Assembly (NCBI GenBank): GCA_023440825.1
Contig: JAEXRL010000030.1
Coordinates: 167,408 to 231,407, forward strand
DNA length: 64,000 nt
Direction of reading: 5' to 3'
DNA from: Pseudomonadota bacterium
GTDB lineage: Bacteria; Pseudomonadota; Gammaproteobacteria; Burkholderiales; Burkholderiaceae_B
Part shown: in pieces, positions 19,317-37,053 of the stretch
Layout: each line of letters starts with the position of its first letter
Position numbering within the stretch: position 1 is the first letter of the stretch
The notes under the pieces: generated by a model
What the model was told of the DNA's origin: nothing
Database searches by the model: none
Seen by the model: only the letters and a program-made list of their open reading frames with translations
Program-made: the position numbers and the translations under genes

Positions 19317-19564
19317 TGATATAGCAGTACTACGGCATAGATCAGGGCTAGTCTTGGAGTAACGCCGCGGACGCGTTAACATAGGGCAGCTTAGTGGTCT
19401 GTGCTTAGGTGGGTTCCTCATGGGCAGTCCATGACACAGCCGGCAGTATGATGTGTCTGTAGGTCAGGTATATCTGTTGTAAAAGCGATTATCCTTATGC
19501 CAAATAGCGATCCTGCCGGGTGTGCGGGATGCTCTGGCGCGTCATCTATTTCAAGGAGAAAGAC

Positions 19565-19990
19565 ATGAGCGGCTTGGATAAGCTCAAGCGGGCTGGTTTG
19601 AAGGCAACGCTGCCTCGCTTGCGGGTGTTAACTCTGTTTCAAGAAAGCGAGCGCAGGCACATGGGTGCCGAAGAAGTGTATCGTGAGCTCATCGCCAAAG
19701 ACATTGATATAGGCTTGGCGACTGTCTATCGCGTCTTGACTCAGCTCGAAGAGGCTGGTTTGTTGAAACAGGCTCACTTACAGTCGGGCAGGGCATTTTA
19801 CGAGCTCGACGATGGGCATCACCATGATCACCTAGTGTGTCTGGATTGCGGTCATATACGTGAATTCTTTAACGATGATGTGGAACAGCGTAAAGAGCAG
19901 ATTGCCGAGTCTTTAGGCTTTGAGCTGTCTGACCACACTATGGTGTTATACGGCTCCTGTAGCCAGGTAGACTGCGAAGCGCGTAGTTAA
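19565..19990 (+). CDS. fur: Ferric uptake regulator
   Basis: LKRAGLKATLPRLRVL, GLATVYRVLTQLEEAGL (wHTH), HHHDHLVCLDCG and a 141-aa length from ATG 19565 are present. Confidence 0.92.
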   Translation: MSGLDKLKRAGLKATLPRLRVLTLFQESERRHMGAEEVYRELIAKDIDIGLATVYRVLTQLEEAGLLKQAHLQSGRAFYELDDGHHHDHLVCLDCGHIREFFNDDVEQRKEQIAESLGFELSDHTMVLYGSCSQVDCEARS

Positions 19991-20128: not shown

Positions 20129-20162
20129 GTGTCACTTTTGCGTCATATAGCTTTGCTAGTAT
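20129..20162 (+). promoter_or_regulatory. Candidate Pho box plus -10 element upstream of the STN-domain gene
   Basis: Two 7-nt direct repeats are separated by TTTT: GTGTCAC (20129-20135) and GCGTCAT (20140-20146). Each matches CTGTCAT at 5/7 positions. TAGTAT (20157-20162) lies 10 nt downstream, the classical Pho-box/-10 geometry. The motif match is weak. Confidence 0.3.
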
Positions 20163-20232
20163 TTTGGCATCACGAAATGAGATGCTTAGAAGCGTGGTTT
20201 TGGCATGGCTATTAAAGGCGTGAAGTGTTTCT

Positions 20233-20943
20233 ATGAGGTTGATACATAATCAAAAAAATCAGCTTGGTGTGGGTGTTTTCGCTTACCTGCTGTGGCCTCT
20301 AGCCGTGTTGTTTATACATAGTCTGGTGTACGCAGCACCTTTACATAGGGTGTATAACTTCGACCTGCCCCCAGACTCGCTCAGTCACACCCTAGAGCGT
20401 TACTCACAGCAAACCGGGGTGTCGGTCGCGGTCGACGTAGCACATATGCATGCAAGCACCTCACTGCTTAAAGCTCGCCTAAACGCACTGGAAGCATTGC
20501 AACATGTATTGCGGGGAACAGGTTTGGTGGTGCGTCAACTTAGCGCTGATTCTTTAGTGGTTGTGCGTGGGTGGACGACAATGAACTCTTCTGAGTTACA
20601 GCGTTACGAACTGGCTGGTCTGAACCCTCGTAATGTACTTCACAAGCGCTATGCAGCGCAGTTACAAACCAATCTTATCGCTGGTCTCTGTAACACAGCT
20701 ATTACCAGACCTGGTTCTTATCGCCTGGCTTTGCAGTTACGTATCGATTCCCATGGGAAGGTTATCCAGCATAAACGACTGGATACCAGTGGGAACCCGG
20801 AACGCGATCGTTATATCGATGAGATCGTTGCCAGCACCTATGTTGGGGCAGCTCCTCCGAGTGATCTAGCGCAGCCAGTGCTCATCCTGATTTTACCAGT
20901 AGCATCGAACGCGTACACCCTGTGTAATAAGGTAAACCGCTAA
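20233..20943 (+). CDS. Secreted STN (secretin/TonB N-terminal signalling) domain protein with TonB-C-like C-terminal region and no beta-barrel (VreA-like)
   Basis: A signal peptide is followed by an STN-like segment (FDLPPDSLSHTLERYSQQTGVSVAVD...LEALQHVLRGTGLVVRQLSADSLVVV). The C-terminus (YRLALQLRIDSHGKVIQHKRLDTSGNPERDRYIDEIV...PPSDLAQPVLILILP) fits the TonB C-domain pattern. At 236 aa it is far too short for a TonB-dependent transducer. Confidence 0.65.
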   Translation: MRLIHNQKNQLGVGVFAYLLWPLAVLFIHSLVYAAPLHRVYNFDLPPDSLSHTLERYSQQTGVSVAVDVAHMHASTSLLKARLNALEALQHVLRGTGLVVRQLSADSLVVVRGWTTMNSSELQRYELAGLNPRNVLHKRYAAQLQTNLIAGLCNTAITRPGSYRLALQLRIDSHGKVIQHKRLDTSGNPERDRYIDEIVASTYVGAAPPSDLAQPVLILILPVASNAYTLCNKVNR

Positions 20944-20945
20944 TC

Positions 20946-21479
20946 ATGCAAACGGCCAGTCAGCGCTTACGACTCAGGCTTAAACTGCGTTATCGCCACT
21001 TGCGTTTACGCCTAGTTGGACTATTAGGGTCTAGCGATAGCGCAACGGCCGCTTTGCATGAAACTTGGTTGCAGCTTGATCGTGTTCCCGACACCACTAC
21101 TCCTACAGATGCTGATGCGTATTTGCTGCGTATGGCCTCCCATATAGCGTTTAAGCATTTTCGTCAGGATACTCCCTATTTATCTGCTCAGGCACTTGAT
21201 GAGCTTTACGAACTTCCTGATCAATATTCCGATATTGAGCAGCAACACGAGACGCGTCAACGTCATCAGCAATTGTTGCTAGCCATAGGGCAATTACCCC
21301 CTCGAAGGCGGGCCATTTTGTTAGCTGCACGGGTGTACGGTGAAAGCAATCAGCAGATTGCAATTGATTTTGGGGTCTCGGTGAGTACCGTAGAGCGTGA
21401 AATCCGCTTAGCGGTAAGGGGATGCCAGCAGCAGATGGAAGAGGTTCTGACTGATGCATCCCCACAGCTAGGACGCTAA
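20946..21479 (+). CDS. ECF (FecI-type) RNA polymerase sigma-70 factor
   Basis: Region 2 (ALHETWLQL) and region 4 HTH (LPPRRRAILLAARVYGESNQQIAIDFGVSVSTVEREIRLA) are present. The start is 2 nt after the upstream stop. Confidence 0.88.
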   Translation: MQTASQRLRLRLKLRYRHLRLRLVGLLGSSDSATAALHETWLQLDRVPDTTTPTDADAYLLRMASHIAFKHFRQDTPYLSAQALDELYELPDQYSDIEQQHETRQRHQQLLLAIGQLPPRRRAILLAARVYGESNQQIAIDFGVSVSTVEREIRLAVRGCQQQMEEVLTDASPQLGR

Positions 21480-21495: not shown

Positions 21496-22467
21496 ATGAA
21501 TCACCCTAGACCACCTCCAGATGCGGTTTACGAGCAAGCTCGTCAATGGCTAGCGTCTCTTAATTCCGGACGTGTGACGCCAGCACAAGCCAAAGCATTA
21601 AGTCAGTGGCGTGCTCAAAGCCCCGCGCATGAACAAGCCTGGTGCGATACCCTTGCTACGTGGAAAACCTTACAACCTGCCTTAAAAACCATGCTCAATA
21701 GCGAGGATGGGGTACAGACTATTGCGTGGGCAGCAAGCGAATCTAGAAAACTACAACGTCACAGGCGTCAGCTTATAAGCGGTACTGGTGTAACGATTTT
21801 GGGCGGTTTGGCCTTAGCTTTATTCCCGCCGCTAGGGCTTTGGCCTTCACTAATCGAGTACCAGGCTGATTTTCGCACAGCTAAAGGCGAACAGCGCACT
21901 ATACAACCTGTTCAAGGCTTAACGGTACAAATGAATACAGCGACGCGTCTTAGCTGGAAAGATCAGACCACGCTAAGTGTGGAGCTGTTGGCTGGTGAGG
22001 CCGAGGTTCATACTGTTGTGGCGATGCAAATACAGGCAGGTCAAGCGTCTATACAGCTTAATCAGGCAAAGATAAATATACGATGGTTAAACGATCAAGC
22101 CGTTTGCGTCAGTTGCTTACAAGGGTACAGTCATGTGCAGTTAGGGCAAGGGTACGAACTTCAGGCTGGACAGCAACTTATCTATGACCAGTATGGTTTA
22201 CGCAGTCAGCAAGCTGTCGATATACAACAAGTAAGCGCTTGGCGGCAGGGCATGCTGTCATTTAACGATGTACCGTTAAGTACCGTAGTAGCAGAAATAA
22301 ACCGCTATCGACCCGGAAGGTTGGTCTTACGTAATCAGCAATTGGCGAACATCCCTGTGCGTATGTTGGTATCGGCGCATAAGCCAGATCTGGCTGTACA
22401 TATGCTGACAGAGCTCTACCAGCTTGAGCTGATAAATTTACCCGGGGGTATAGTTTTACTCAGCTAG
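21496..22467 (+). CDS. FecR-family transmembrane anti-sigma factor / sigma regulator
   Basis: It has an N-terminal anti-sigma domain (A..WL..L.SG..T......L..W), a single TM (GVTILGGLALALFPPLGLW) and a periplasmic FecR domain with a C-terminal LSF..VPL..VV.E..RY motif. Confidence 0.88.
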   Translation: MNHPRPPPDAVYEQARQWLASLNSGRVTPAQAKALSQWRAQSPAHEQAWCDTLATWKTLQPALKTMLNSEDGVQTIAWAASESRKLQRHRRQLISGTGVTILGGLALALFPPLGLWPSLIEYQADFRTAKGEQRTIQPVQGLTVQMNTATRLSWKDQTTLSVELLAGEAEVHTVVAMQIQAGQASIQLNQAKINIRWLNDQAVCVSCLQGYSHVQLGQGYELQAGQQLIYDQYGLRSQQAVDIQQVSAWRQGMLSFNDVPLSTVVAEINRYRPGRLVLRNQQLANIPVRMLVSAHKPDLAVHMLTELYQLELINLPGGIVLLS

Positions 22468-22677
22468 TGGTTACATTTTGTTTCTATTTGGTAGTGAAAA
22501 AAGTAAAGGCTAACCGCAAAAAAAAGACTTCTATAAACAGGGGTGTCTATTTGTGAGCCAAAGCGTGTGCGCGACAGTCTCGTCATCCAATTAGACATCT
22601 GCTTTCTGATTCCTTTTAGCGCTTGTTCGATGCGATCCTTTATGAGGGCATCGACGGCATGATTTCAGGGTGGCTTC

Positions 22678-25600
22678 ATGTTGCAGAGTCTTGTCTCCAC
22701 GTCCGCGTGTTTATTGTCTAAGTTTGAGAAACGTTCTAAGCCCAGAGCAGGGGCACCGAACTGGACGATTACACCACTTGCGTTGGCCTTAGGTATGGTG
22801 CTTGCTTCAGCTTGGCATAACGGCGCTCGTGCCCAGCTACGTGGCGATTTTTTCACCCAGCAAAACGCGGCCCTGCAACAGCAGCAACGCGCCGCGCATC
22901 AGGCAGCCCGTGCCGTCCAACAATCTTTAAGCACACAGCAGCAGCAAGCCGCCGCCCGGGCACATTTGTCGCACTCCTTAGATAACCTGAATCGTACCGC
23001 CAATGCTATTGCCGCCCAGCAAGCTGCCCAAAACGCCGCTCGTCTAGCCGCTCGGCAGCAAGCCAGCAGCGTGGCCGATGGCTTGGCACAAGGGGGACTA
23101 GAAGTAGCCACCGGGGATAAAGCCACTTGGTTAGGTGCCCAAGCCCCCGTAACAAGCAGCAAAGACGGTCAACATCATGTGGGCATTAAACAAACCGAAT
23201 CTAAGGCCATACTTCACTGGAACCGCTTTGATGTGGGACGCAACACCACCGTAGAATTTCAGCAAAAAAGCACCGATGCCGTCCTGAACCGTGTGGTGGG
23301 TGTGGATGCTAAGCCTAGCCAAATACAAGGAAAAATTAAAGGCGATGGCACGGTCATGGTGGTCAATCAGAACGGCATTATATTTAGTGGTAGCAGCCAG
23401 GTAAATGTGCGTAATTTGGTGGCTGCTGCAGCAAGTTTGAGCGATCAGCAATTTTTCGAGCATGGCATATTGGGTGCAGAACAAGGTAAAAACGCCGTAT
23501 TTAACGATGCTAAGGGTGATGTGCGTGTTGAGGCGGGTGCGCTCTTAGCTCCCTTGGCGCCACACAGCAGCACTCGCGAGGGAGGCTATGTGCTGTTATT
23601 GGGGCAGCATGTACATCATGCAGGAGAAATACAGCTTAATCAGGGACAAGCGGTATTGGCGGCAGGTGATACCTTCTATATTCGGCAGGGTCGTGGTTCC
23701 GAAGCCAATCGGCGCTCCTCAATTGAAGGCCTAGAGGTGGCAGCACATGCTGCCGCGGATCAGTCCCATACATTGACGCATACCGGTGTGATTCAAGGTA
23801 ATAGCAGCGCTATTACTTTACATGCTAGACAGGTTCAGGTGGGAGGAGACAAGCTGCAAGCGCCAGCCCTTACCCTGAGTACGAGTACGACACAAAAGCG
23901 CGGCACTATTCATGTTTTGGGGACTCAAGATACCGACAGCCAGGTCGAACTGCTTAACAATAGCGTAACGGCTATAGTGATAGATCAGCAAGAGCTCACT
24001 GCCTTGGACAGCCAGCGTGACAGTTTACGTCAACATGAGGCGCAATATACCGATAACACCAATGAGGACCGTTTACGAGACCCCGGAGCAGTCTTTGGAG
24101 CCTATGGTAGCAGTGGTCGTTTAAACGTCGAGTCTAGGGTGAATCCCAGTCCTGATCGTCTGGATCAATCACGTATAGAGATCATTTCGGGTGGAAATAT
24201 TCACGCTAGAGGCGGAGCACTAGTACTGGCCACAGGAGGGCAACTGGTTTTCCGTACTGCACCTAGCACGACAAATGCTCAGGTAGGGGGAGTAGCACAT
24301 ATTCATAGCGGTGCTGCGCTTGATGTATCAGGCGCAATCGGTGTGGCCTTATCAATGAGTGACAATAACCTGCTCATTAATGTGCAAGGTAATGAGTTAC
24401 GCGACGCACCTGTTAACCGTGATAGCAATGCGCGAGAGTCAAAAAGCTGGCTATCTAATAGCGATCTCTGGCTAGATGAGCGTTTATTGGTACCGGTCTT
24501 GGGACTTGATGGTGAGTACCGCTTGTACAGTCACGGTGGCTTACTGGAAGTGTCTGGTTGGGTGGGTTTGCGCCGCCGTGGCATGGGTGAATGGGCTTCT
24601 TCCGGGGGGAATATTTCCGCGTACGGTGCACGCTTTACGAGCGATACCGGTGCCTTGTTGAATTTATCAGGGGGCACTTTAGATGTGGCCAGTGGTTCTA
24701 TTCGACAGTCTTGGCTGTTAGATGGGCGTGGTCGCCTACATTTGGCTGATAGGGCATTGGCAACGATACCTTATACCCGTGTGTTTACCGGCTATGTGAG
24801 TGAACATCATCGCTGGGGTGCCTCATCGCAGCGAGAGTTTCATTCTCCTTTATTAGCCCCCTATTATCGCTATGAGCAAGGCTACACGGTTGGCCGTGAT
24901 GCGGGCGAGTTAATTGTCGCCACCCAGCACTTTGAGCTACAGGGACAACTTATTGCGGATACCTACCAGTCACCGTTGCAGCAGTTAGGGCGAGTTAACA
25001 CACAAGGAAATAGTCACCATCAACTGGCGCAGCGTGCTGGTTTGATTATTGGTCATGTAGTGCCTATGCTGCAAGACGGTGCCTTAGTGTCTTATGTGCG
25101 CGCCGTCAGTGATCAAGTACATATACATGGTGGCGATACAGCACAGCCTGTAAATTTTGACATAGACGACTGGGTGTTTGATGCCAATAGCAGTAATAAG
25201 CTGTCAGCGGATCTGCTGAACGATTGGAATTTAGGCAAGTTATTGGTTGCGGCTAACGAAGCCATTGTGCTGGATGGTGACTTACGGTTAGCGCCCAGTG
25301 CCATGGGAGGGGAATCAACTACGCTGGGCTTACATGCGCCACAAATAGTGGTTAATGCGGCGATTTATACACCTGCTGGCGGCATTGTAATGAATAACCG
25401 TTTAACAGGTCGTGATCAACAAGGAAAGGTTGTGAGCGACGAACGTCGCTTACCGCTGGCGAGCCACAACATTAAGCCTCACTTTATCCATGTGGGTGCG
25501 CAGGGTGATCTGAACACATCAGGAGTAATAAACCTCAGTGGTGATTCAGTCGCTAAACCATACCTGGAGGGTGGCGATATCCATATTTTATCCTCTGGTT

Positions 25601-28600
25601 ATTTACGCATACAGAAAGGCGCTAAATTAGTAGTTAATTCGGGTGCGATGTTGGATGAGAAAGGCCAATTGCAGGGTGGTTATGGGGGGGATGTGCATCT
25701 GGCTAGTGGTTACCGCAACTCGGAAGCAACCTTCCCTAGTTACCTAGAAGGACACATTGAAGGCTATGGGGTAAAAGGCGGCGGAAGCTTACGCGTTGAT
25801 GCGAGTACGGCAGTAAGTATAGGTGGGCGATTACTACAGGAAAACGGAGTATTAAAAGCAGGGGAGGTCGCGCCCACCATGCTAACCATAGAGGAAACGA
25901 TAGAGCAAGGTGAGGGTGAAATTCTACTTGCAGATATTACATATAAGTCGAATGTGTTAATGCCAGGGCAATACTATGATTATGCCCTGATGGGGGGATT
26001 CAATACTGCATGGGTGAATGGGTGGCCGAGCGACATGTACGTTACAGAGGATTTTTATTTTTTTGAACCTCTGAAGACTGTCCAGGGCGTACCAATAACA
26101 ATTGCTGCTCGGGTACCTGGGGATGATAGCCTACACAGAGTAACTCGTGGCTGGCTCAGGAAAGGCACACAGATATTGGGCCTTTCAGCTAGACCTGCTA
26201 ACCAAGTGCTCCCCCCAGAGGTATTTAGTGTACCGATTCCTGTTACTAACAATTATGACAAGGTGTTGTCTGCAGGAATATTGTTAACCGCCGAAGTGCT
26301 TAATAATACCTTGCAGGGCAAACCCGTTGTGATTACGCCAGGTAATGTGATTGCTGCTGGGCAAGTGTTAGGGGTGGATGTAAAGGTTACCCCTTTGTTT
26401 GAGTTTTCTACAGCCAGGTTCAATAGTGGCTTTGCCCACTACGATATACGAGGGGCACAAGGCTTACGTGTTGCCGCTTCACATAAGGACGGGGAAACGC
26501 TGCAGCCAACACAGCCGCTGTGGCAGCTTGAGCACAGCTCAGGCACTATCAGTTTACAGGCAAAGCAAAGGGCGCAGCTTTTGCAAGCTCCAAAGAACGC
26601 ATACGATGCAGCCACCTTCCGTCCCGGCGTACAGCTAAGTTTTAGTGCTGGTTTAAATGGTGGTGATACTCAAAACCGTGCTGGCTTAGGTATTACTATT
26701 GATGAAAATGTAACGCTGCAATTAGACCCGCTGCAAACGCTTAGTTTACATTCCGCTGGTTTTACGCGTATAGACGGAAAAATAGTGATACCAGGTGGCG
26801 TGGTCGAATTTAGTGATTCGGTAAACAATACGCTACTGCAACGTCCCGCACAGATAAGTCCTGCTGCTGGCTTAGGGGTGCAGTTAGGCAAACAAGCACA
26901 TATAGATGTGGCAGGTCGAGCATTTAAGGTGCATAATGCAGCGCAAAATAAAGCCTATGGTTTGGTGCTAGATGGCGGTCAGGTGCTGTTTGGCCAAGCG
27001 ATTGAGCGCGAAACAGGGCGAGGTTATCACGAATATACACCCAGTTCTTTGCACGGTTTTGTAGCAATAGCTGAAGGTGCCCTCGTAGATGCATCTGGTG
27101 CTGCCTTATACGATAGCCAAGGTGCTTTAGTGCAGTCCTCACGTGGGGGCCGTATTGTTTTAAATAGTACCTATGGTTGGCAAGTTGATGGTGAACTATT
27201 AGCACACGGGGGCAAAGCAACGCAAGGTGGCAGTTTAGAACTAGCTTTAGAAAGCCCCAGCTACCGACGAGACAACGCGTATTTAAATCAGTGGTTACAT
27301 CAGCGCGAGTTAAATCTCGTACAGAAGATATCGGATATTACTCTAAGTAATTATACAGTAGGCCGTGCTTCATATTCGGTACAGCAACTAGCGGAGGGTG
27401 GTTTTTCCAGTGTGGCGCTGTTGGTGAACGGCGCCCTTAGCCTACAGGATGGTTTACACCTTGACTTAGGGGATCAGCTGTCTGATCTTTCCCTTTACAC
27501 CCGCGCTATGCATTGGACTGACGATGTAGGTTCCCAAGCTACAGCCAGCATTAAAGCACCCTACTTATTGTTGGCGGGTACCACCTACCGAAGCTCAAAC
27601 CCCGATGGCACCTCGCAAGCCCCTGTTGGTGGTATTTCCGTACCTGGGCGCAGTGAATGGGCACAGGGTTCAATTAGTTTCTATGGGCAGCATATAGACC
27701 TGCGTGACCACATTTATATGGGTAGGCACGAAGTGGGGTCAAACCTAACAAAGTTTGGCTTTAAGCAAATCAACTTGTTATCTGATACAGATGTGCGTAT
27801 CAGTTCGAGTGGTCTTATTGGTGGCGGCAGCGTTAATGCGGGGTTAACGGTACCGTACGAACTTAATATTTACGCACAACGTACCTACGTTAGCAGTGGC
27901 ACTATTGCCATCTTACACACGCCTGAAATTTCATGGATTAGAGAAAAAGAGGGCTATATTGATGGTACAAGTAGCCCATCCGAAGTAGGCAGTAGCATTA
28001 ATTTTTACGCAAGCCCTAAGGGTAAGGTGTCATCAGCCACACCCAATACTTACGGAGGTCGTTTAGCCATAGGTGCTGAGCAAGTGCGCGTAGCCAGTGC
28101 TATCTATGCCCCAGAAGGGCAGTTGTTGATTGGGCTGAATAAAGAATATGGTGCAGGCGATACAGAACGGGTGCACTTGGAGGCAGGCGCAATAGTGTCT
28201 GTCAGTACTGCAGGTTTAGTCATCCCGAACGGCGGCACTACCGATGGCCTGACGTGGGAATGGGCTTCGGGTGAAACGTTTACCGCTCATAAAGACGATA
28301 CACGTCGCCGAATAACTAAAAATCTACGCTTAGCGGGATCCTATATTAAGGTGGATGATGGTGTAACGCTAGATGTAAGTGGTGGGGGCGAATTACTAGG
28401 CTATGGTTTTATTGCTGGGCGTGGCGGCAGCAGAGATATTCGTTATCATGCTTTAGACCCCTTCCAGCGTGTACTACAGCGCCAGAACTACAAGGATTAT
28501 TCTGGTATTTATGCTGTGCTGCCTGCGAATGATTTACTGGCACCAGCAACTCATAGCGCAATGGGGGCCGATTTCACGTCGCTGCAGTTCGACCACGCTT

Positions 28601-31600
28601 TACTTGGCCTGTCTACAACGCAATCGTATACCTTAATGCCAGCAGAATACGCTTTATTGCCTGGTGCTATACGGGTAGAGCTTGTTCAGCAGCCCCACCC
28701 ATGGGTGGTGACCGATGCGCCTGACGTAAGCTTGGCTCGGCACGATGGATTGTATTCAAACGCAGGCAGTTACCGTAGTGGTGCAACGTTACTTGGGGGG
28801 ATCAATGGGCATGTACTAAACAGCCATATACAGGTTCTCTTAACGCCTGCAGCAGTAGCGCATAAACATGCCAATTATAATCAAACTACCTTCACGCAAT
28901 ATCTGGAAGCAGCAGCTTTATTACATGGAGTGATGCCAGAAAGAGGAATAGCCGACGCTGGTGTGCTGCAATTCACCTTGAACAACTACCATCATTATAT
29001 AAATGGGCAGTGGTTGCCTGTTCGCAGGGATAAGGCTAGCTTGCAGTTTGAAGGACAAATAAACGCCCAAAGCCAAGGGGGCTATTTGGCTGAGGCGGCT
29101 GTAAATACGCACCGCAAGACGATGAGCCTTACAGTAGTGTCCTCAGAGCTGCCGTTAATGCCCCCGTCGTCAAACACTGCTTTTTTGCTTACAGATGCAG
29201 CACTTAACCAGATAGCAAGCAGTGTTTATCATCTGCGTGTTGGTGTGGCGGATCGGGCAAATGATGCAGCACATACGCTATCGTTGGCGACAGGTGTGCA
29301 GTTGCATGCCCAAGAGCTTTTGCTAGGGGCAGATCAAAGCCTTCAACTTGCCGACGGTGTCACCATTACGGCACGCCATCAAGGCACCTTAGTTCCAGAA
29401 AACTATCAGGCGCGGGCTATTCATGGCGATGTAACGGCATTGCTAATCTCGGAGCGTCAGCAAATCGGGGCAAGTTTCGGTACGGGCGGGGGGCAGATTC
29501 GAGTAGGTGAGGCTGTGTTGCAGGCAGACGGTGTGGTGGCGTTCATGACCGACGGTGAAGTAACGCTAAACCCGCGTGCCCAAATTGGAGCAAAAGAGCT
29601 ACAACTGAAGGCAAGCGCCATCACTTTATACGGTAGCGAACAAAATGCCGATAATAACCGCTACGGCCTACAGTTGGATAGCCATTTTATACATCACTTG
29701 CTTCATAATCCTTTGATAAAAATACAAAAATTACATTTAGCAGCCAGTGATTTTGTAGGTTTTCATGGCAACGTACAGCTTAACCTGCAGCAAGAGGGTG
29801 GTTTAGGGCAGTTTTTACTGAGTACGCCTACCTTGAAAAGTGTAGGACATAATCAGGCTAACGTAGAAATTCATGCAGATGAGTTCCAGTGGGCGTCACC
29901 GTCTTACCAAGAATCTGCGAGCATTGTTAGTGCTACTGATTCTTCGGGGCAGTTTATTGTTAACGCACAAACAGTTTTACTTGGGCAGGACAAGCAACAA
30001 TTTGGCGTTTCAAAAACACCTGTGCTGCGCGCAGTAGGTTTTGATAACTACCAGTTACAGGCCGAGCATGCCATACAGCTTGCTGGTGACATTGACGTGC
30101 AGTTTTATCAACGACAAAAAGAGCTTAGCAACGGGAAGCTTAGTTATCAGGATGGTAGCTTAACTTTAGTTACCCCACAGCTTAGTGTGGCTGCTGGGGT
30201 GGCAGGTACTGTGGCTGCACATACCATACATATACAAGGAAACCACGCTGCTAACCCTAGTAAGGCAAACGACCTGGTAGGGCTAGGGGGAAGTTTGGCG
30301 CTACATGCCGATGCGCAGTTACATACACAGAATGTGTACATCACCTTACCAACGGGGAAAGTGTTGTTACAGGCTGGCACAGGGCTTAATGTAGGAGAAA
30401 ATACTCTTATTGATGTTGCCGCGGTGCCTCAAACCATAGGAGCACAAGATGTTCATCTATGGGGTGGTGAGGTTGAGTTACGCAGTCAGAGAGGCTATAT
30501 CCATACGCACGAAACTAGCAGTATTGATGTGTCTGCAATGAATAACCATGCAGGCCAGTTACGCGTCATACTTGAGGAAAGCGAAGGCACGAAACCTAGC
30601 ATTCGTTTAAATGGTGCTTGGGCGGGGCAAGCTGTTGGTAATTACGCTAGCACAGGGCAAGAGTTTGCGTATGCTGGCGGACGATTTAGTTTGCAAGCGC
30701 CAAACACCGAAGCCTCTGGTGGCTCAGCCAGTGCATGGTTTACAGAATTAAACCGTAAGTTAGATGAAGCAGGCTTTTTCGGTGCTCGCCTTTTTGCGTA
30801 TGAGCGTGGTGACTTGGTAGTTAGCGATACTGTCACGGCAAATATCATCGATCTACAATTGCGACACGGTCAACTAACAATAAATGGGACGCTGGACGCT
30901 AGCGGTGATCGCGTAGGGCGTGTGACGCTACAAGCACAGCATGGCTTAAGCTTAGGTGACACTGCAACGATTGATGTAAGTAGCCATCAACTGCGTGTTG
31001 ATGCATACGGTGATCCTATTCATGCTGCAAACCGTGGCCGAATTACCCTGGGGAGTGAAAGTGGCACCGTGCGAATAGGAAATAGCCATTTTAATTTCCA
31101 AGTGGGTGGAGATAGCAATTACCGACAAGGCGCTTTGCATATTTATGCGCCACGGTTACAGAAAGATGGTGCTGGTGTACGGTTACGCATGTCTGCAGGG
31201 GCTACACAGCAAGGGGCGGCAGAGGCAGTGGTATATGGTGTTGCACGTTACACAGATGCACCACTTGCAAGCGAGCCTCTTAGCGATGGTAAATGGTATC
31301 AGCAGATTGATCAGTCTTATATGGATCGTCTGCATCAAGATTCAAATTTATTTATAGAACGCAGCTTAGCGGATACCGGTTGGCGGATGGATGCTTTAGC
31401 AGTGCAAAATCAAGCTATATGGCAGGATATTATGCACTTACGTCCTGCCGTCCAAATTGAAAGCCTAACTGCAGAAACGCCTTTAGTGGTAATAGGTGAT
31501 ATCGATTTAGCGCGTTATCGTTATGCATCATTGAACCCTGAAGTAGCGAGTGCTTATCAAACAGGAGTCGATTCTTCACACGCTGCATATGGTTCAGGTG

Positions 31601-34600
31601 AGCCTGGGTTGTTAATGTTAAAAGGCAAAAGCGATGTATATATATTTGGCAGCATTAACGATGGTTTCGCCATGCCGGTTGACCCCGCCACGGGGAGTCT
31701 GATTCAGACGCCTGACGATGACAATTGGTTGCTAGTGACAGGTACTCAACCTTTAGAAAGTGATGTGTGGTTGCCTATTAATGGTGTCACTCTAGAGGCT
31801 GGGACTGTATTTCCTAAAGGGGTGCAGCTTAATTACACGCTTGGTGCAGTCGCTCCAGTGAGTGTAGCGCAGGGGGTAGTGCTACCTATCGCAGGTGTTA
31901 CCATTGCAGCATATACGTTCTCAACCACCGTTGCGTTCAACCATAATGTAGAGGTACAGGATACCCAAGGGGTAGTGCATACAATTTTGGCGGGGCAGCG
32001 CGTGCCTGCAGGTAGCATATTGCCCGCAGGTTCAGAGTTAAAGGCGGGCAGTCGCCTCCCTATACCGTTAACCTTGCAGTTTGCTTCATGGCCTGCTAAT
32101 ACTCCTTTAATTAGTGACTTAACCCTTGATGCTGCTCAGCAGCTTTCTGTGGGCGCATTTATACCTGGTACAGCAAAGTTGGTTCTGCCAAGCACACTGC
32201 TTGATGGTACGTATAATTTACGTCCAAGCACAAATGGCGAACAACGAATAAATTGGGCTGCAGCCCCTATGTTAGGTGAGGGCAAGAAGTCGTGGTCTAT
32301 ACATATCGGGGCAGGGGAAAACGCCTTAGCGGGGAAATTAGTGCTCAGTGACCCCCATTATTCCGCAATAAGTCGTGTGGTGGTTGAAGGGGCTTACTAC
32401 ACAGTACAGCTGTGGGATGATGAACTAGGTGGATACTATTACACCGCATACATGGCCAAGCGTGCACATCCTGGGCAAGGTATGGAAATAGGCAAGCCGA
32501 TGACGCGTGCGCAGGTTTCACGGTATTGTGGTACTCCGGCTAGTGCGGCAGTGTGGTGCGACAGGTTAAAACATCCTGATAGTCATAAGGTGGTTGCTGG
32601 TTCACCTTTAGTAAGTGTATTGCGTACCGGCACGGGAGATATACAGCTTAACGCAACCAGCGACATCAACATTAACTCGGCATATGGGGTGTACACCGCT
32701 GGTGCGGAAGTAGACCTTAAGCGTGTAGCAAGTGTTGATAATGCCTACGCTTTACGCGCTTTTAACAGAGAAAACTACAGAGATGTTGGTAGAAGCGTTT
32801 TAGGTGCGGGTGGCGTTGAGTATGAACATTTGGTAAACGAAGGTAGCACGTCAGCTCTACGCACAGGTTGGTACAGCGACGGTGGCGGCGATGTTAGCAT
32901 TCATGCGGGGAAAGACTTGTTAGGTTGGAGCACCGCTAATACCCTAAGCTACAACACACGCGCGACGCGGGCAGCGCTTGAGCCTGATGTGTGGTTATGG
33001 ACGCAAGGCCTGATCAATGATGAAAGGTGGGAAAATACGTCTACAGGCTGGAAGCTCAACTTTGGTACCTATGTGGGTCCGGGGAATGATGCTATACATG
33101 ACGAAGCACTAAAGCGTTTGCCCTATTTTCGAGGGTTTACTGGTGTTGGTACACTGGGTGGCGGCAATGTGGCGATTAATGTAGGCCGACATTTTGGTGC
33201 TATACAAATGGCAAACGATAGTGCGCGTACCACAGGCCGGGGGGTAACTGCTGCCGCTGCCTCTACGGGTATTGTGCATAACGATGGGCGTGTGCAACAG
33301 ATGGGTGGGGGCGATGTCTCTATTATTGTTGGTGGTCGCGTAAACCCAGTAGAAAAAACAGAGTACATGCGGCACGTTAACTTTAACCATTATGGCGCGG
33401 TTATTGCGATGCGTGGGCAAGCTCAGCTACAGGCGTTTTCGGTGGGTGCGGCACAGCCTTTTTTCCACGGTAGCTATAACCTCGATTCGCGTCCTGTTAG
33501 CGATGATTTGGTCTACACCTTACAAAGTGCTGCTGGGTTGAATGTGTTCCTGGCTGATGCTGCACTAAATATAAACAGTTACGACGGGCTAACCGTTAGT
33601 GGTATAGCCGATATAGGTAGGCGTGCCCAGGGTATGTTCGCTTTACGTAGTAGAACAAAGGGCGAACGCATCGCTGAAATTGATGCGCAAAGTGTTTTCA
33701 GTTTATGGACAGACTATACCAGTGTGCGGTTTAGCAGTGCTGGGGGCGACCTAATTCCTTTTAATATGCAAGTGACTGCACCTAATTGGAGCTCACACCG
33801 TGGCAGTGTATTTTATGCTGCCTCCAATGAGACGGGTTTCATTTTACCGTCACAAATGGCAGTCTTAGCGGCAAGTGGGTCTGTGTATTTGGGGTCGACG
33901 GGGTTTTCACATTCAAATAGTAATTCAAGCAAAATTTTTGTTAGTGCTCCTAATGCCTCACAAGGTGGAAGCTTCATGGTGCAGGCTAAAAATATGGTGT
34001 CTGCACGGGATTTCATTTTGGTGCCGTCCAATGCAGCGCACACTGTCACCAGCGGCCCCAAACGCGCACCCGTGTGGGTGGATGGTCCAGTTAGGGGGCT
34101 ATTGCTCAGCACAATGAGTAATAACACCTTAGGAAGAGCGATAAGTGAATATTTTGCTTTTGGGCCTTTGGTGGATCACAACAGTGGCACAACTGCAGCC
34201 AGCGTAGAAGTTTATGCCGAGCAAGGCGATATTATCGGTTTGGACCTTGGGGCTACCTTTACAGCACGAGGTGGGGAGCAATGGTTAGCAGGGCCTAGTA
34301 GAGCAAGCATTTCTGCTGGGCGTGACCTAGTAAGTTTTGGGCGTGGTGCAGATACTGTATTTAATACGCCGATGGGCGCCATTGAGGTGAAGGCAGGCTT
34401 GCTTGTACACGATAATGCACAAACGGTTTCTACCCTGTATGCAGGCCGTGATCTGTTACACAGCCAGGTGCAAATAGCCGGACCAGGTACCTTAGCACTT
34501 ACCGCAGGGCGTAGCATTCGTATGGAGGATAGGGTATCCGTTACCAGCCTAGGCGGGGTTGTTCCCGCCGACGAACGCCCCGGCGCCGACATTGTGATGC

Positions 34601-35868
34601 TTGCTGGTGTGGGGCAAAATGGCCCAGCCTACCAGCAGTTGTTGCAGCAATATACCCAGTCCAGCAATCGTATCGACACAAGCCTACCCCTAGCTGACCA
34701 GCCTGGTGGCGTTGTGCAAGACTACGAGGCCGAATTAATCGATTGGTTAGCCGAGCGCTTCGATTACCAGGCAGAGGATGCTGAGGCAGCACGCGAGTAC
34801 TTGGCGGCATTGCCTACTGCGCAACAAGGTGTTTTTGCACGCCAAATTTACTTTAACGAATTACGCGCTGGTGGGCGTGAATACAATGACCGCAATGGTC
34901 CACGTTTTGGAAGCTACCTACGTGGACGTAATGTGATAGAGGCCTTATTCCCCACCTTAGACAGCCATAATAACCCCATTGTTTACGAGGGTGGGGTAAC
35001 GATATACGGCAACCAGGGTGTTCATACCTTGCGGGGCGGCAATATCCAAATACTTAGCCCTGGCGGTGCACAGGTGTTTGGGGTCGAGGGTATTTACCCA
35101 AGTGGTGCCGCAGGGGTCATAACTCAAGGGCAAGGCGACATTCAACTGTTTGCACGCGATAGTATTTTGCTAGGCCAAAGCCGTATTATGACCACCTTTG
35201 GTGGCGACATTCTGGCTTGGTCAGCCCAAGGCGACATTAACGCTGGCCGCGGTTCTAAAACCACCGTGGTCTACGCCCCACCGCGTCGGGTGTACGACGA
35301 AATGGGTAATGTCAGCATCAATCCCGATGTGCCCAGCACGGGTGCGGGTATTGCCACGCTGGCTCCTATTCCTGAAGTCCCGGCGGGTGATGTGGACTTG
35401 ATTGCTCCCTTGGGTACGATCGACGCAGGCGAAGCGGGTATACGCGTATCCGGTAACGTGAACGTGGCGGCTTTGCACGTCGTGAACGCTGACAACATTC
35501 AAGTGCAGGGCGAAAGCAAGGGCATGCCTATAGCCGTTAGCGTCAACGTAGGCGCCCTGACCAGCGCCAGCAGTGCCGCCAACTCGGCCGCCACGGCGGC
35601 TCAGGAAACCTTGAGCCGTGCACGCGATGCGGCGCGCAGTAATCAGCCTTCGCAGATTCAGGTGCAAATACTGGGCTTTGGGGCAGGGGACAGTACGTCC
35701 AGCCTTACACCAGCTCGCGTGTTGCCGTCTACTCAGCTTGTTACTGAGGTAGAGAAAGTCGTAGATTATGATCCTGAGCATGCTGTGCGTATTCTTAGCT
35801 TTGGCGCGCCAGATAACTTGCGCAGGCTTGTACTGAGTGAGCACGAGCGTCGTAATCTAGGTTTGTGA
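22678..35868 (+). CDS. Giant (4396 aa) two-partner-secretion exoprotein, filamentous-haemagglutinin family (TpsA; PdtA/FhaL-like)
   Basis: It has a long signal peptide (predicted cleavage ARA/QL) and a TPS/haemagglutination-activity domain (ILHWNRFDVGRNTTVEFQQ..DAVLNRVVG...SQIQGKI.GDGTVMVVNQNGIIFSG). A G/N/S/T-rich beta-helix-like sequence runs for thousands of residues. The conserved C-terminal block is GDINAGRGSKTTVVYAPP...IDAGEAGIRVSGNVNVAALHVVNADNIQV. Confidence 0.9.
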   Translation: MLQSLVSTSACLLSKFEKRSKPRAGAPNWTITPLALALGMVLASAWHNGARAQLRGDFFTQQNAALQQQQRAAHQAARAVQQSLSTQQQQAAARAHLSHSLDNLNRTANAIAAQQAAQNAARLAARQQASSVADGLAQGGLEVATGDKATWLGAQAPVTSSKDGQHHVGIKQTESKAILHWNRFDVGRNTTVEFQQKSTDAVLNRVVGVDAKPSQIQGKIKGDGTVMVVNQNGIIFSGSSQVNVRNLVAAAASLSDQQFFEHGILGAEQGKNAVFNDAKGDVRVEAGALLAPLAPHSSTREGGYVLLLGQHVHHAGEIQLNQGQAVLAAGDTFYIRQGRGSEANRRSSIEGLEVAAHAAADQSHTLTHTGVIQGNSSAITLHARQVQVGGDKLQAPALTLSTSTTQKRGTIHVLGTQDTDSQVELLNNSVTAIVIDQQELTALDSQRDSLRQHEAQYTDNTNEDRLRDPGAVFGAYGSSGRLNVESRVNPSPDRLDQSRIEIISGGNIHARGGALVLATGGQLVFRTAPSTTNAQVGGVAHIHSGAALDVSGAIGVALSMSDNNLLINVQGNELRDAPVNRDSNARESKSWLSNSDLWLDERLLVPVLGLDGEYRLYSHGGLLEVSGWVGLRRRGMGEWASSGGNISAYGARFTSDTGALLNLSGGTLDVASGSIRQSWLLDGRGRLHLADRALATIPYTRVFTGYVSEHHRWGASSQREFHSPLLAPYYRYEQGYTVGRDAGELIVATQHFELQGQLIADTYQSPLQQLGRVNTQGNSHHQLAQRAGLIIGHVVPMLQDGALVSYVRAVSDQVHIHGGDTAQPVNFDIDDWVFDANSSNKLSADLLNDWNLGKLLVAANEAIVLDGDLRLAPSAMGGESTTLGLHAPQIVVNAAIYTPAGGIVMNNRLTGRDQQGKVVSDERRLPLASHNIKPHFIHVGAQGDLNTSGVINLSGDSVAKPYLEGGDIHILSSGYLRIQKGAKLVVNSGAMLDEKGQLQGGYGGDVHLASGYRNSEATFPSYLEGHIEGYGVKGGGSLRVDASTAVSIGGRLLQENGVLKAGEVAPTMLTIEETIEQGEGEILLADITYKSNVLMPGQYYDYALMGGFNTAWVNGWPSDMYVTEDFYFFEPLKTVQGVPITIAARVPGDDSLHRVTRGWLRKGTQILGLSARPANQVLPPEVFSVPIPVTNNYDKVLSAGILLTAEVLNNTLQGKPVVITPGNVIAAGQVLGVDVKVTPLFEFSTARFNSGFAHYDIRGAQGLRVAASHKDGETLQPTQPLWQLEHSSGTISLQAKQRAQLLQAPKNAYDAATFRPGVQLSFSAGLNGGDTQNRAGLGITIDENVTLQLDPLQTLSLHSAGFTRIDGKIVIPGGVVEFSDSVNNTLLQRPAQISPAAGLGVQLGKQAHIDVAGRAFKVHNAAQNKAYGLVLDGGQVLFGQAIERETGRGYHEYTPSSLHGFVAIAEGALVDASGAALYDSQGALVQSSRGGRIVLNSTYGWQVDGELLAHGGKATQGGSLELALESPSYRRDNAYLNQWLHQRELNLVQKISDITLSNYTVGRASYSVQQLAEGGFSSVALLVNGALSLQDGLHLDLGDQLSDLSLYTRAMHWTDDVGSQATASIKAPYLLLAGTTYRSSNPDGTSQAPVGGISVPGRSEWAQGSISFYGQHIDLRDHIYMGRHEVGSNLTKFGFKQINLLSDTDVRISSSGLIGGGSVNAGLTVPYELNIYAQRTYVSSGTIAILHTPEISWIREKEGYIDGTSSPSEVGSSINFYASPKGKVSSATPNTYGGRLAIGAEQVRVASAIYAPEGQLLIGLNKEYGAGDTERVHLEAGAIVSVSTAGLVIPNGGTTDGLTWEWASGETFTAHKDDTRRRITKNLRLAGSYIKVDDGVTLDVSGGGELLGYGFIAGRGGSRDIRYHALDPFQRVLQRQNYKDYSGIYAVLPANDLLAPATHSAMGADFTSLQFDHALLGLSTTQSYTLMPAEYALLPGAIRVELVQQPHPWVVTDAPDVSLARHDGLYSNAGSYRSGATLLGGINGHVLNSHIQVLLTPAAVAHKHANYNQTTFTQYLEAAALLHGVMPERGIADAGVLQFTLNNYHHYINGQWLPVRRDKASLQFEGQINAQSQGGYLAEAAVNTHRKTMSLTVVSSELPLMPPSSNTAFLLTDAALNQIASSVYHLRVGVADRANDAAHTLSLATGVQLHAQELLLGADQSLQLADGVTITARHQGTLVPENYQARAIHGDVTALLISERQQIGASFGTGGGQIRVGEAVLQADGVVAFMTDGEVTLNPRAQIGAKELQLKASAITLYGSEQNADNNRYGLQLDSHFIHHLLHNPLIKIQKLHLAASDFVGFHGNVQLNLQQEGGLGQFLLSTPTLKSVGHNQANVEIHADEFQWASPSYQESASIVSATDSSGQFIVNAQTVLLGQDKQQFGVSKTPVLRAVGFDNYQLQAEHAIQLAGDIDVQFYQRQKELSNGKLSYQDGSLTLVTPQLSVAAGVAGTVAAHTIHIQGNHAANPSKANDLVGLGGSLALHADAQLHTQNVYITLPTGKVLLQAGTGLNVGENTLIDVAAVPQTIGAQDVHLWGGEVELRSQRGYIHTHETSSIDVSAMNNHAGQLRVILEESEGTKPSIRLNGAWAGQAVGNYASTGQEFAYAGGRFSLQAPNTEASGGSASAWFTELNRKLDEAGFFGARLFAYERGDLVVSDTVTANIIDLQLRHGQLTINGTLDASGDRVGRVTLQAQHGLSLGDTATIDVSSHQLRVDAYGDPIHAANRGRITLGSESGTVRIGNSHFNFQVGGDSNYRQGALHIYAPRLQKDGAGVRLRMSAGATQQGAAEAVVYGVARYTDAPLASEPLSDGKWYQQIDQSYMDRLHQDSNLFIERSLADTGWRMDALAVQNQAIWQDIMHLRPAVQIESLTAETPLVVIGDIDLARYRYASLNPEVASAYQTGVDSSHAAYGSGEPGLLMLKGKSDVYIFGSINDGFAMPVDPATGSLIQTPDDDNWLLVTGTQPLESDVWLPINGVTLEAGTVFPKGVQLNYTLGAVAPVSVAQGVVLPIAGVTIAAYTFSTTVAFNHNVEVQDTQGVVHTILAGQRVPAGSILPAGSELKAGSRLPIPLTLQFASWPANTPLISDLTLDAAQQLSVGAFIPGTAKLVLPSTLLDGTYNLRPSTNGEQRINWAAAPMLGEGKKSWSIHIGAGENALAGKLVLSDPHYSAISRVVVEGAYYTVQLWDDELGGYYYTAYMAKRAHPGQGMEIGKPMTRAQVSRYCGTPASAAVWCDRLKHPDSHKVVAGSPLVSVLRTGTGDIQLNATSDININSAYGVYTAGAEVDLKRVASVDNAYALRAFNRENYRDVGRSVLGAGGVEYEHLVNEGSTSALRTGWYSDGGGDVSIHAGKDLLGWSTANTLSYNTRATRAALEPDVWLWTQGLINDERWENTSTGWKLNFGTYVGPGNDAIHDEALKRLPYFRGFTGVGTLGGGNVAINVGRHFGAIQMANDSARTTGRGVTAAAASTGIVHNDGRVQQMGGGDVSIIVGGRVNPVEKTEYMRHVNFNHYGAVIAMRGQAQLQAFSVGAAQPFFHGSYNLDSRPVSDDLVYTLQSAAGLNVFLADAALNINSYDGLTVSGIADIGRRAQGMFALRSRTKGERIAEIDAQSVFSLWTDYTSVRFSSAGGDLIPFNMQVTAPNWSSHRGSVFYAASNETGFILPSQMAVLAASGSVYLGSTGFSHSNSNSSKIFVSAPNASQGGSFMVQAKNMVSARDFILVPSNAAHTVTSGPKRAPVWVDGPVRGLLLSTMSNNTLGRAISEYFAFGPLVDHNSGTTAASVEVYAEQGDIIGLDLGATFTARGGEQWLAGPSRASISAGRDLVSFGRGADTVFNTPMGAIEVKAGLLVHDNAQTVSTLYAGRDLLHSQVQIAGPGTLALTAGRSIRMEDRVSVTSLGGVVPADERPGADIVMLAGVGQNGPAYQQLLQQYTQSSNRIDTSLPLADQPGGVVQDYEAELIDWLAERFDYQAEDAEAAREYLAALPTAQQGVFARQIYFNELRAGGREYNDRNGPRFGSYLRGRNVIEALFPTLDSHNNPIVYEGGVTIYGNQGVHTLRGGNIQILSPGGAQVFGVEGIYPSGAAGVITQGQGDIQLFARDSILLGQSRIMTTFGGDILAWSAQGDINAGRGSKTTVVYAPPRRVYDEMGNVSINPDVPSTGAGIATLAPIPEVPAGDVDLIAPLGTIDAGEAGIRVSGNVNVAALHVVNADNIQVQGESKGMPIAVSVNVGALTSASSAANSAATAAQETLSRARDAARSNQPSQIQVQILGFGAGDSTSSLTPARVLPSTQLVTEVEKVVDYDPEHAVRILSFGAPDNLRRLVLSEHERRNLGL
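23077..23940 (+). other. TPS (haemagglutination activity) secretion domain of the giant exoprotein
   Basis: Residues about 134-420 carry the NRV/NQNGIIF equivalents of the NPNL/NPNGI TPS motifs. Confidence 0.75.
35200..35530 (+). other. Conserved C-terminal domain typical of the giant FHA-family subgroup (DUF3739-like, from memory)
   Basis: The segment reads GGDILAWSAQGDINAGRGSKTTVVYAPPRRVYDEMGNVSINPDVPSTGAGIATL...DLIAPLGTIDAGEAGIRVSGNVNV. Confidence 0.45.
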
Positions 35869-35935: not shown

Positions 35936-36769
35936 TTATTGTCGAGCTAGGCGTGGCTCATCCACTCTAGCGGCATAGCTGGCGCGCCAAGGGTTGATGT
36001 CCAGTCCGCCGCGTCGTGTATAGCGTGCATACACAAAAAGTTTTTCGGGTTTGCACAGTGTCCAGATATCGTGATAGAGGCGCTCCACGCAATGCTCATG
36101 AAACTCATTGTGCTGACGTAAGGACACTATATAGGCCAGCAACGAGGCGTGGTCAATTTGAGGGCCGGTATATTGCACTTGTACGCTGCCCCAGTCGGGC
36201 TGATTGGTGACCAGGCAGTTTGACTTTAGTAAGTCAGAGCGTAGTGTCTCGGTGACCCGTTGCGCTTTATCCGCCAGTTTTAGTAAATTTGCTTGCGGTG
36301 TGTAATGCGTAATCTCAATATCTAACTCATCTAGCAAAATCCCGGGCAGCACACCGATGAGCTGCCCATTCAATTCCTCTAGGGAATGCAAGGTGACTTT
36401 AACCGGTGCGCCCGCGACGGCGGATAGATCTTCCTGAATACGAGCTCGCAGACTTGGGACATCACTCACTCTTTCCTCGTTAAACGAATTGAGGTAGAGC
36501 TTCAGTGATTTGGACTCGATAAGATGGGGACTTTGCCAGGGAATTTCAAAACGGCCCACCGCAACTACAGGCTTGCCCTTGCTATTTAGCCAAGACATCT
36601 CATAGGCATTCCAGATGTCGGCACCAAACCAGTTGTCCGGAATGCTCAGATGCCCGCGGTTATCTGCTCGAGGTATGCCAAATAAAAGCTCAGGCTGATA
36701 GCGCTGTGGATACTGAGTGGTTTGTCCCAAGGGTGAGTCTTGCAGGGAGCTGTGTGCAACGTCTGTCAT
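35936..36769 (-). CDS. queF: NADPH-dependent 7-cyano-7-deazaguanine (preQ0) reductase, bimodular type
   Basis: It is 277 aa with ESKSLKLYLNSF, the catalytic segment LKSNCLVTNQPDWGSV and the HEFHEH motif. Confidence 0.9.
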   Translation of the reverse strand: MTDVAHSSLQDSPLGQTTQYPQRYQPELLFGIPRADNRGHLSIPDNWFGADIWNAYEMSWLNSKGKPVVAVGRFEIPWQSPHLIESKSLKLYLNSFNEERVSDVPSLRARIQEDLSAVAGAPVKVTLHSLEELNGQLIGVLPGILLDELDIEITHYTPQANLLKLADKAQRVTETLRSDLLKSNCLVTNQPDWGSVQVQYTGPQIDHASLLAYIVSLRQHNEFHEHCVERLYHDIWTLCKPEKLFVYARYTRRGGLDINPWRASYAARVDEPRLARQ

Positions 36770-37053
36770 AAATAGTGATGATAATCATAAAAGAGAAATT
36801 TCCTTATTATCCCACATTGTGAAAGTGTCGTTTTAGTATGCAAAAAATGCCTGTTGCATTGCTCTAAAAAATTTTTCACAAAGAAGATTTGTATTTCATA
36901 TCTCGAAATAGTGTTTCTATGTTGTTGATTTAAAACAAAAACATTTTTTGTCTTGTATAAGACATAAGTGTTCTTTGCGCTGCAGCATTTAGATAGACTG
37001 TAGTCATCTTATTTGCAGTTCTAACCATAGCTAGTTTTAACTTGGAGTTAACA

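Follow-up and report, generated by a model that had tools for sequence, protein, structure and literature searches.

How is a giant exoprotein of the TpsA type expressed and exported when no gene for its TpsB transporter lies nearby? The question is raised by a gene that occupies 13.2 kb of a 64,000-nt stretch of contig JAEXRL010000030.1 (hereafter the window, meaning the whole stretch of DNA that was analyzed). The host is treated here as Alcaligenes, a betaproteobacterium; the ClpB encoded in the window shares a 90% cluster with that of A. endophyticus. A first-pass annotation had described a 4396-aa TpsA protein behind a pair of genes for an extracytoplasmic function (ECF) sigma factor and its anti-sigma factor, had drawn an analogy to PdtA and sigma-VreI of Pseudomonas aeruginosa, and had treated the missing TpsB as an anomaly calling for a distal TpsB or a different route. 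We found that the locus is a PUMA3/PdtA-type system already known from P. aeruginosa, and that the TpsB-less state is common in its family.

The giant gene is a single open frame, and a frame of 13.2 kb cannot have arisen by chance. Its product has the N-terminal organization of a TpsA protein, a Sec signal followed by a TPS domain with secretion motifs; the first-pass annotation had likewise reported the TPS domain. The signal peptide lies at about residues 25–52, with a hydrophobic stretch and an ARA cleavage-like site at residues 33–52, and the TPS domain at residues 148–400 matches PF05860 (E = 5e-25, Pfam) and the TIGR01901 haemagglutinin N-terminal domain (3e-20, NCBIfam). The LNRV and VNQNGIIF motifs of this domain are intact, and an AlphaFold model renders it as a beta-helix with a predicted local distance difference test (pLDDT) score above 90. 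Between signal peptide and TPS domain, the Gln/Ala-rich residues 84–127 form one long predicted helix (pLDDT climbing to about 90) in which Q90, S100, L104, A112–Q115, Q118, R122 and A125 are invariant across 20 homologs (alignment A2). This predicted pre-TPS helix is a hallmark of the PdtA family, one defined in the present analysis and not taken from the literature.

The opposite end of the protein is its most conserved part. A C-terminal module of about 400 residues is 60–73% identical to relatives versus 20–43% for the central shaft, and the roughly 90 invariant columns of the C-terminal alignment (A1) are all kept. The module is modeled, at a pLDDT of 75, as beta-helix turns, a helical insert of about 105 residues, a DUF3739 domain (PF12545, residues 4175–4285, E = 5e-41, Pfam) and a disordered tail. 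Profile and sequence searches with the module returned no match in PDB, and comparison by fold returned generic beta-helices alone, at E > 0.03.

We queried for homologs with the N-terminal 600 and the C-terminal 500 residues of the giant protein; the homolog index returned proteins of about 1000 aa or less, which are fragments, and full-length context was taken from locus comparisons. Over the last 500 residues the giant protein shares 60% identity with the P. aeruginosa protein annotated as ‘filamentous haemagglutinin family protein’, the DUF3739 TpsA PdtA. The genes downstream of that P. aeruginosa gene encode a POTRA_2/ShlB protein, ExbB, ExbD, a TonB-like protein and Porin_5, a neighborhood that identifies it with the published pdtA-phdA-pdtB-exbB2-exbD2-tonB4-PA0696 arrangement (PMC4971064, PMC7035377). 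The N-terminal 600 residues are 41–58% identical to homologs from Achromobacter, Bordetella, Paenalcaligenes, Janthinobacterium, Variovorax, Pseudomonas and Klebsiella, and B. ansorpii and B. hinzii also have family members. With a TPS domain at one end and DUF3739 at the other, the giant protein is a member of the PdtA family.

The regulatory genes upstream form a trio. Both genes of the reported ECF/anti-sigma pair are present, and the earlier description had overlooked a 236-aa vreA-like gene in front of them. Its product matches the N-terminal region of FecA at residues 35–108 (NCBIfam), and residues 39–123 align to the signaling domains of FemA, FpvA, FecA and PupA (phmmer, PDB); the C-terminal half is a TonB-C-like domain. 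The Pfam matches of this protein are weak in the window (TonB_2, E = 0.037; STN, E = 0.076), and both are significant in the orthologs from two related loci (L002, L053). On one strand, 2 nt separate the vreA-like stop from the sigma factor start and 16 nt separate the sigma factor gene from the anti-sigma gene, whose stop lies 210 nt before the ATG of the giant gene; this placement, and the convergent queF that follows, agree with the first-pass annotation. Because an STN-domain protein without a barrel precedes the sigma factor gene, we read the regulators as a vreA-vreI-vreR-like operon and not as a fecIR pair. VreA of P. aeruginosa is itself an STN-domain protein without a barrel (PMC4971064, PMC7035377).

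The trio resembles P. aeruginosa PUMA3 (VreA-VreI-VreR; PA0674–PA0676) in its barrel-less VreA-like STN protein, its ECF sigma factor, its FecR-type anti-sigma factor, its tightly packed operon and a pho-box-like site upstream. The giant protein resembles PdtA (PdtA/PdtB, PA0690–PA0692) in its combination of TPS domain and DUF3739 module, although identity in the central shaft is only 20–43%. Unlike in P. aeruginosa, the trio abuts the giant gene, the host is Alcaligenes, and the window contains no hxc type II secretion genes, lapA or phdA and no pdtB-exbB2-exbD2-tonB4-PA0696–0701 operon. Judged by its predicted gene products, the locus is a homolog of PUMA3/PdtAB of P. aeruginosa that would work in the same way, cut down to four adjoining genes. 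With the FecA-FecR-FecI iron-starvation systems it shares an STN domain, a DUF4880 FecR-type anti-sigma factor and a FecI-like ECF sigma factor. Unlike FecA, however, the STN protein has no TonB-dependent barrel and plug and ends in the TonB-C-like domain, the target is a giant exoprotein instead of a siderophore receptor, and the upstream motif is pho-box-like. Another giant protein from the same bacterial family, the FHA-like FhaL of Bordetella (BP2907, about 4200 aa), which the first-pass annotation placed in one class with PdtA, is Bvg-activated without a BvgA site (PMC7253368).

An exporter is absent from the window, as had been reported. No open reading frame (ORF) of at least 250 aa in the window matched POTRA_2, ShlB or Omp85 in Pfam, and a PdtB-family hidden Markov model built on 33 TpsBs found no match in six frames among stop-to-stop segments of at least 80 aa, even at E ≤ 10. 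The TpsB-free flanks of the giant gene extend 22 kb upstream and 28 kb downstream. Window ORFs of at least 250 aa beside the cassette encode core metabolism and housekeeping functions (uvrC, fur, clpB, glnE, yhdP, ccoNOP, tct genes and others), and no pdtB-exbB2-exbD2-tonB4-porin operon adjoins the giant gene within the window.

This absence is no anomaly in the family. A scan with the C-terminal alignment over one genome per species found at least 496 loci, of which the best 80 were used, and downstream counts were made on the 75 with at least 9.4 kb of downstream sequence. A PdtB-type TpsB lies within 10 kb downstream in 32 of these 75 loci, and the remaining 43 have none of the operon genes, so an adjacent PdtB operon does not define family membership. 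Where PdtB is linked, it always comes with ExbB2, ExbD2, TonB4, a porin, a PA0697-like protein, YbjN and a peptidyl-prolyl isomerase (PPIase), making the operon an all-or-none set (32 loci). One annotation source labels PdtB homologs ‘associated with VreARI signalling system’. In a neighbor-joining tree of the C-terminal region, copies with and without a linked TpsB intermingle and follow taxonomy; several long branches at its top, probably the product of crude frame extraction, were disregarded. The frame is open through at least 10 kb in 47 of 48 TpsB-less loci and in 32 of 32 TpsB-linked loci. The sole broken copy among the 80 genome loci is that of Paenalcaligenes niemegkensis (L009/L011), where the giant gene is spread over at least six consecutive ORFs; the split could reflect decay or assembly errors. 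At another locus (L008, 8773–11643), from P. aeruginosa, an insertion sequence (IS)-type transposase gene (rve, HTH_Tnp_1) stands directly upstream of a 546-aa C-terminal pdtA remnant, and pdtA appears to have been disrupted there by an insertion sequence.

The upstream side was surveyed with the N-terminal alignment in metagenomes, which gave 80 more loci with up to 6 kb of upstream sequence each. The VreA-like/ECF/FecR trio lies immediately upstream of the giant gene in 37 of the 80 (two are cut by the contig end), as it does in L001 and L002. Among 37 trio-less loci with enough sequence, 32 are arranged as in P. aeruginosa, with a DING/PstS-like (LapA-like) gene and genes for type II secretion on the upstream side; the tail of a pdtB operon precedes the giant gene in four metagenomic loci, and no TpsB lies within 6 kb upstream in any of the 80. 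The recurrent trio, together with the 60% C-terminal identity and the STN-only VreA-like protein, turns the proposed analogy to PdtA and sigma-VreI into homology. The four-gene unit recurs across many beta- and gammaproteobacteria, at times in tandem or in several copies. Separately, an ECF sigma factor gene with no detectable VreA-like partner follows right after the giant-gene stop in a number of loci (L022, L038, L061, L064, L067, L072, L075, L081, L084 and L089).

Genomes with several cassettes bear on where the exporter might be. Variovorax LT1R16 has five loci and one PdtB operon, and A. marplatensis B2 has two loci and one operon; in Orrella JC864, Achromobacter sp. Bel and B. ansorpii, loci without a TpsB go together with PdtB on another contig. 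Tandems of giant gene, trio and giant gene occur in L029, L045 and L053 (Variovorax, Achromobacter ruhlandii and others). On a conjugative IncFIB plasmid of Klebsiella quasipneumoniae (L172/L173; NZ_CP084804.1, 116548–185000), two STN-sigma-FecR-giant cassettes in series precede a single ShlB-ExbB-ExbD-TonB-porin-YbjN-PPIase-LysR stretch, and IS elements flank the region, indicating that the system is horizontally mobile. It is established that one TpsB can serve more than one TpsA (reviewed in PMC5422565), and export through a TpsB encoded elsewhere is known for Bordetella FhaS via FhaC and for N. meningitidis TpsA2/TpsA3 via TpsB1/TpsB2 (PMC5422565). Multi-copy PdtA-family genomes with one PdtB operon are like these cases, although FhaS and the meningococcal TpsAs are of the FHA/HrpA type, without DUF3739, pre-TPS helix or a dedicated ECF/anti-sigma cassette.

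The tree groups the window protein with the copies of A. endophyticus and Alcaligenes sp. WGS1538, both TpsB-less. Identity with the A. endophyticus copy is 64% at the C-terminus and 21–49% in the shaft, and we rejected synteny, as that copy sits beside minCD, glnS and cydAB; the low identity and the different chromosomal site suggest old paralogs or independently placed cassettes. In metagenome samples containing the window cassette, two more are present (L001, 5106–12355; L170, L171) whose N-termini are 52–58% identical. Both of these paralogous cassettes carry the motif LRGDFFTQQNAALQQQQRAAHQA and have their giant gene called as two ORFs, with the break near residue 800; one of the cassettes adjoins a phage-type integrase and kfrA.

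Based on these comparisons, we propose with moderate confidence that the locus is a compact PUMA3-type vreA-vreI-vreR-pdtA cassette, driven by phosphate limitation and the ECF sigma factor, whose giant TpsA is exported by a distal PdtB-type TpsB to form a surface adhesin fiber. Under phosphate limitation, PhoB would turn on the three regulator genes through the pho-box promoter. The ECF sigma factor, once freed from its anti-sigma factor, would start transcription of the giant gene at a promoter within the 210-nt spacer, perhaps alongside read-through. The giant protein would then pass the inner membrane via Sec, and its intact TPS domain would be recognized by a TpsB of the PdtB type whose gene lies at another place in the genome, as a rule inside a pdtB-exbB-exbD-tonB-porin operon common to several cassettes. 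At the surface it would assemble into a long beta-helical fiber, variable along the shaft and conserved at its tip or tail, and would serve as an adhesin or contact factor. We infer the regulatory steps from sequence and from one model organism, and we also infer that the host genome encodes the TpsB.

The phosphate input is suggested by the site upstream of the vreA-like gene, which has four mismatches to CTGTCAT-N4-CTGTCAT. A search at three or fewer mismatches found no site near the cassette; the four-mismatch site gains significance because it is conserved across loci. Of 43 related loci, 32 have a site with at most four mismatches ahead of the vreA-like gene, versus 7.7% of control windows placed at random in the same loci, a count that overstates independence since some loci are close relatives, though the motif is also common to sequences that clearly differ. 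The vreA promoter of P. aeruginosa depends on PhoB and carries a PhoB-bound pho box (PMC4971064). Wherever an assembly contains the cassette, a fur gene stands immediately upstream. Given the pho-box-like site and the PhoB dependence of the P. aeruginosa vreA promoter, this adjacency looks incidental, and the cassette is probably induced by phosphate starvation, not by iron as the label ‘fecR’ suggests.

For the giant gene itself, we searched the spacer for a promoter of the ECF type. A two-block Gibbs motif, run over 33 spacers on non-coding sequence only so as to keep out the conserved last codons of the FecR gene (LPGGIVLLS and the stop), reached an information content of 11.7 versus 9.0–9.7 in shuffled controls. 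It consists of an A-rich −35-like block, 12–17 nt and a block ending in GTC; the window spacer also has a second GTC-rich block at about 22575–22590. A single-block 32-nt motif was discarded, being mostly an A-rich run of low information, and footprinting against the three closest cassettes was uninformative, as the sequences are too divergent. A consensus scan of the spacer detected no sigma-70-like promoter and no terminator. The spacer holds a marginal candidate for an ECF-dependent promoter.

Several observations weigh against the proposed account, on the side of export as well as that of regulation. All three Alcaligenes loci are without a TpsB, the two relatives in the tree lying among core genes like the window copy, and the best 120 PdtB homologs, twenty unnamed clusters included, contain none from Alcaligenes or Paenalcaligenes. 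The Alcaligenes lineage may, on this weak indication, have lost PdtB, leaving its intact genes to rely on some other TpsB or on none. We consider it unlikely that the giant protein is in this way a true orphan, one left without any compatible TpsB and staying periplasmic or degraded, a decaying relic, or leaving by an unknown exit route, even with the long TpsB-free flanks and the broken P. niemegkensis copies in its favor. The apparent absence of PdtB concerns those best 120 homologs, many of whose rows are anonymous; the cluster members behind the unnamed ones come from Bordetella, Pusillimonas, Orrella, Achromobacter and Pseudomonas only. Moreover, the 13.2-kb frame has no stop, the family-invariant TPS and C-terminal residues are all kept and nearly every TpsB-less locus retains an intact ORF, all of which argues for ongoing selection, and the identical cassette stands beside fur in at least eight independent assemblies. 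Since several multi-cassette genomes carry a single PdtB operon, a TpsB encoded elsewhere in the genome appears to be the best explanation for export; of the two options left by the first-pass annotation, both fairly stated, the comparative data favor this one. That the protein is instead a CdiA-type contact-dependent inhibition toxin, with cdiB and immunity genes missing or elsewhere, is suggested by its size, its TPS domain and its long beta-helical shaft, and we regard this as highly improbable. Its C-terminus is the part most conserved across genera and not polymorphic, Pfam finds no VENN/pretoxin or toxin domain in it, and no small immunity-like ORF occupies the 67 nt before queF; we rejected the toxin reading on the conserved C-terminus and the lack of an immunity-like gene downstream.

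On the regulatory side, the ECF motif is weak, about 2 bits above shuffles, and its position in the spacer is ambiguous; the candidate site (22519–22547) ranks 34th among 127,936 window positions under a leave-one-out matrix, which for a region of this size corresponds to a p of about 0.05. At the pdtA promoter of P. aeruginosa, sigma-VreI needs PhoB (PMC4971064), and the 210-nt spacer has no convincing pho box, its best site having five mismatches. VreA is dispensable for sigma-VreI activity in P. aeruginosa (PMC4971064, PMC7035377), which leaves the role of the vreA-like gene uncertain. The giant gene might be simply the fourth gene of a vreA operon driven by PhoB and sigma-70 and reached by read-through, with the ECF sigma factor controlling genes elsewhere. 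In its favor, the four genes run in the same direction, nothing resembling a terminator separates the FecR gene from the giant gene, and the spacer is short, 67–130 nt, in many relatives. We think such an operon on the unlikely side, if worth keeping in view. Against such an operon, pdtA of P. aeruginosa has its own promoter, dependent on sigma-VreI and PhoB, as mapped by rapid amplification of 5′ cDNA ends (5′-RACE) and mutagenesis (PMC4971064). A non-coding spacer of 67–405 nt is retained in every cassette examined, its motif exceeds shuffled controls, a pho-box-like site lies within it in 11 of 33 loci, and each duplicated giant gene keeps a trio of its own.

A further possibility, which we think quite unlikely, is that the four genes make up a unit that senses contact by itself, the part of the missing receptor falling to the giant protein together with its TpsB. 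The TonB-C-like domain of the VreA-like protein would bind a part exposed to the periplasm, either of the giant protein (pre-TPS helix or C-terminal module) or of the transporter, and the STN domain would then signal to the FecR-type anti-sigma factor, so that secretion state or surface contact would feed back on the ECF sigma factor. If true, this would account for the private trio of each duplicated giant gene, for the conserved termini against a divergent shaft and for the inducing signal of sigma-VreI.

PdtA and sigma-VreI are linked to virulence in P. aeruginosa, where it has yet to be established what PdtA does, what part VreA plays and which signal activates sigma-VreI (PMC7035377). The window locus and its relatives present this system in its smallest form, four genes that are often duplicated, detached from Hxc/LapA and frequently from PdtB as well. 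They define the trio and the giant gene as the core co-inherited set, with one PdtB-ExbBD-TonB operon probably serving several giant proteins, and they point to the pre-TPS helix and the C-terminal module as the regions where function should be sought. In annotation, ‘FecR/FecI next to Fur’ at this locus should not be taken as an iron system. The coordinates of the cassette, its elements and its neighbors are collected in the table.

Table. Features of the vreA-vreI-vreR-pdtA-like cassette and adjoining genes, in window coordinates.
Feature	Position	Strand	Details
fur gene	19520–19990		NCBIfam Fur equivalog, 165 bits, above cut-off; gene callers begin later, giving 141 aa
Pho-box-like site	20129–20146	+	GTGTCAC-TTTT-GCGTCAT; 87 nt upstream of the vreA-like start
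−10-like element	20157–20162	+	TAGTAT; 10 nt after the pho-box-like site
vreA-like gene	20233–20943	+	236 aa; signal peptide, STN domain, TonB-C-like domain, no beta-barrel
ECF sigma factor gene (vreI-like)	20946–21479	+	177 aa; Pfam Sigma70_r4_2 and Sigma70_ECF, NCBIfam TIGR02937
FecR-type transmembrane anti-sigma gene (vreR-like)	21496–22467	+	323 aa; Pfam DUF4880 and FecR, NCBIfam FecR 2e-17
Spacer with candidate ECF-type promoter	22468–22677	+	210 nt; AAAAAAAG (22519–22526), 14 nt, GGGTGTC (22541–22547)
pdtA-like gene, TpsA-type giant exoprotein	22678–35868	+	ATG start, 4396 aa; single open frame in the mechanical ORF list
Pre-TPS Gln/Ala-rich helix (predicted)	22927–23058	+	aa 84–127, between signal peptide and TPS domain
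TPS secretion domain	23119–23877	+	aa 148–400; PF05860, TIGR01901
Conserved C-terminal module	34555–35865	+	about aa 3960–4396, about 400 residues
queF, next gene downstream, convergent	35936–36769	−	67 nt past the giant gene

Two minor features lie around the cassette. A 32-nt imperfect direct repeat (78% identity) at 20224–20255 and 36910–36941 brackets the cassette and queF; no integrase or tRNA gene was found near it, Rfam and tRNA scans of the window were empty, and the repeat could be chance or an old insertion scar. Farther downstream, a 324-aa ORF (38564–39538) upstream of ccoN has only a partial match to E1-E2 ATPase (profile positions 107–178 of 181) and may be a truncated or mis-started ccoI/fixI-like gene.

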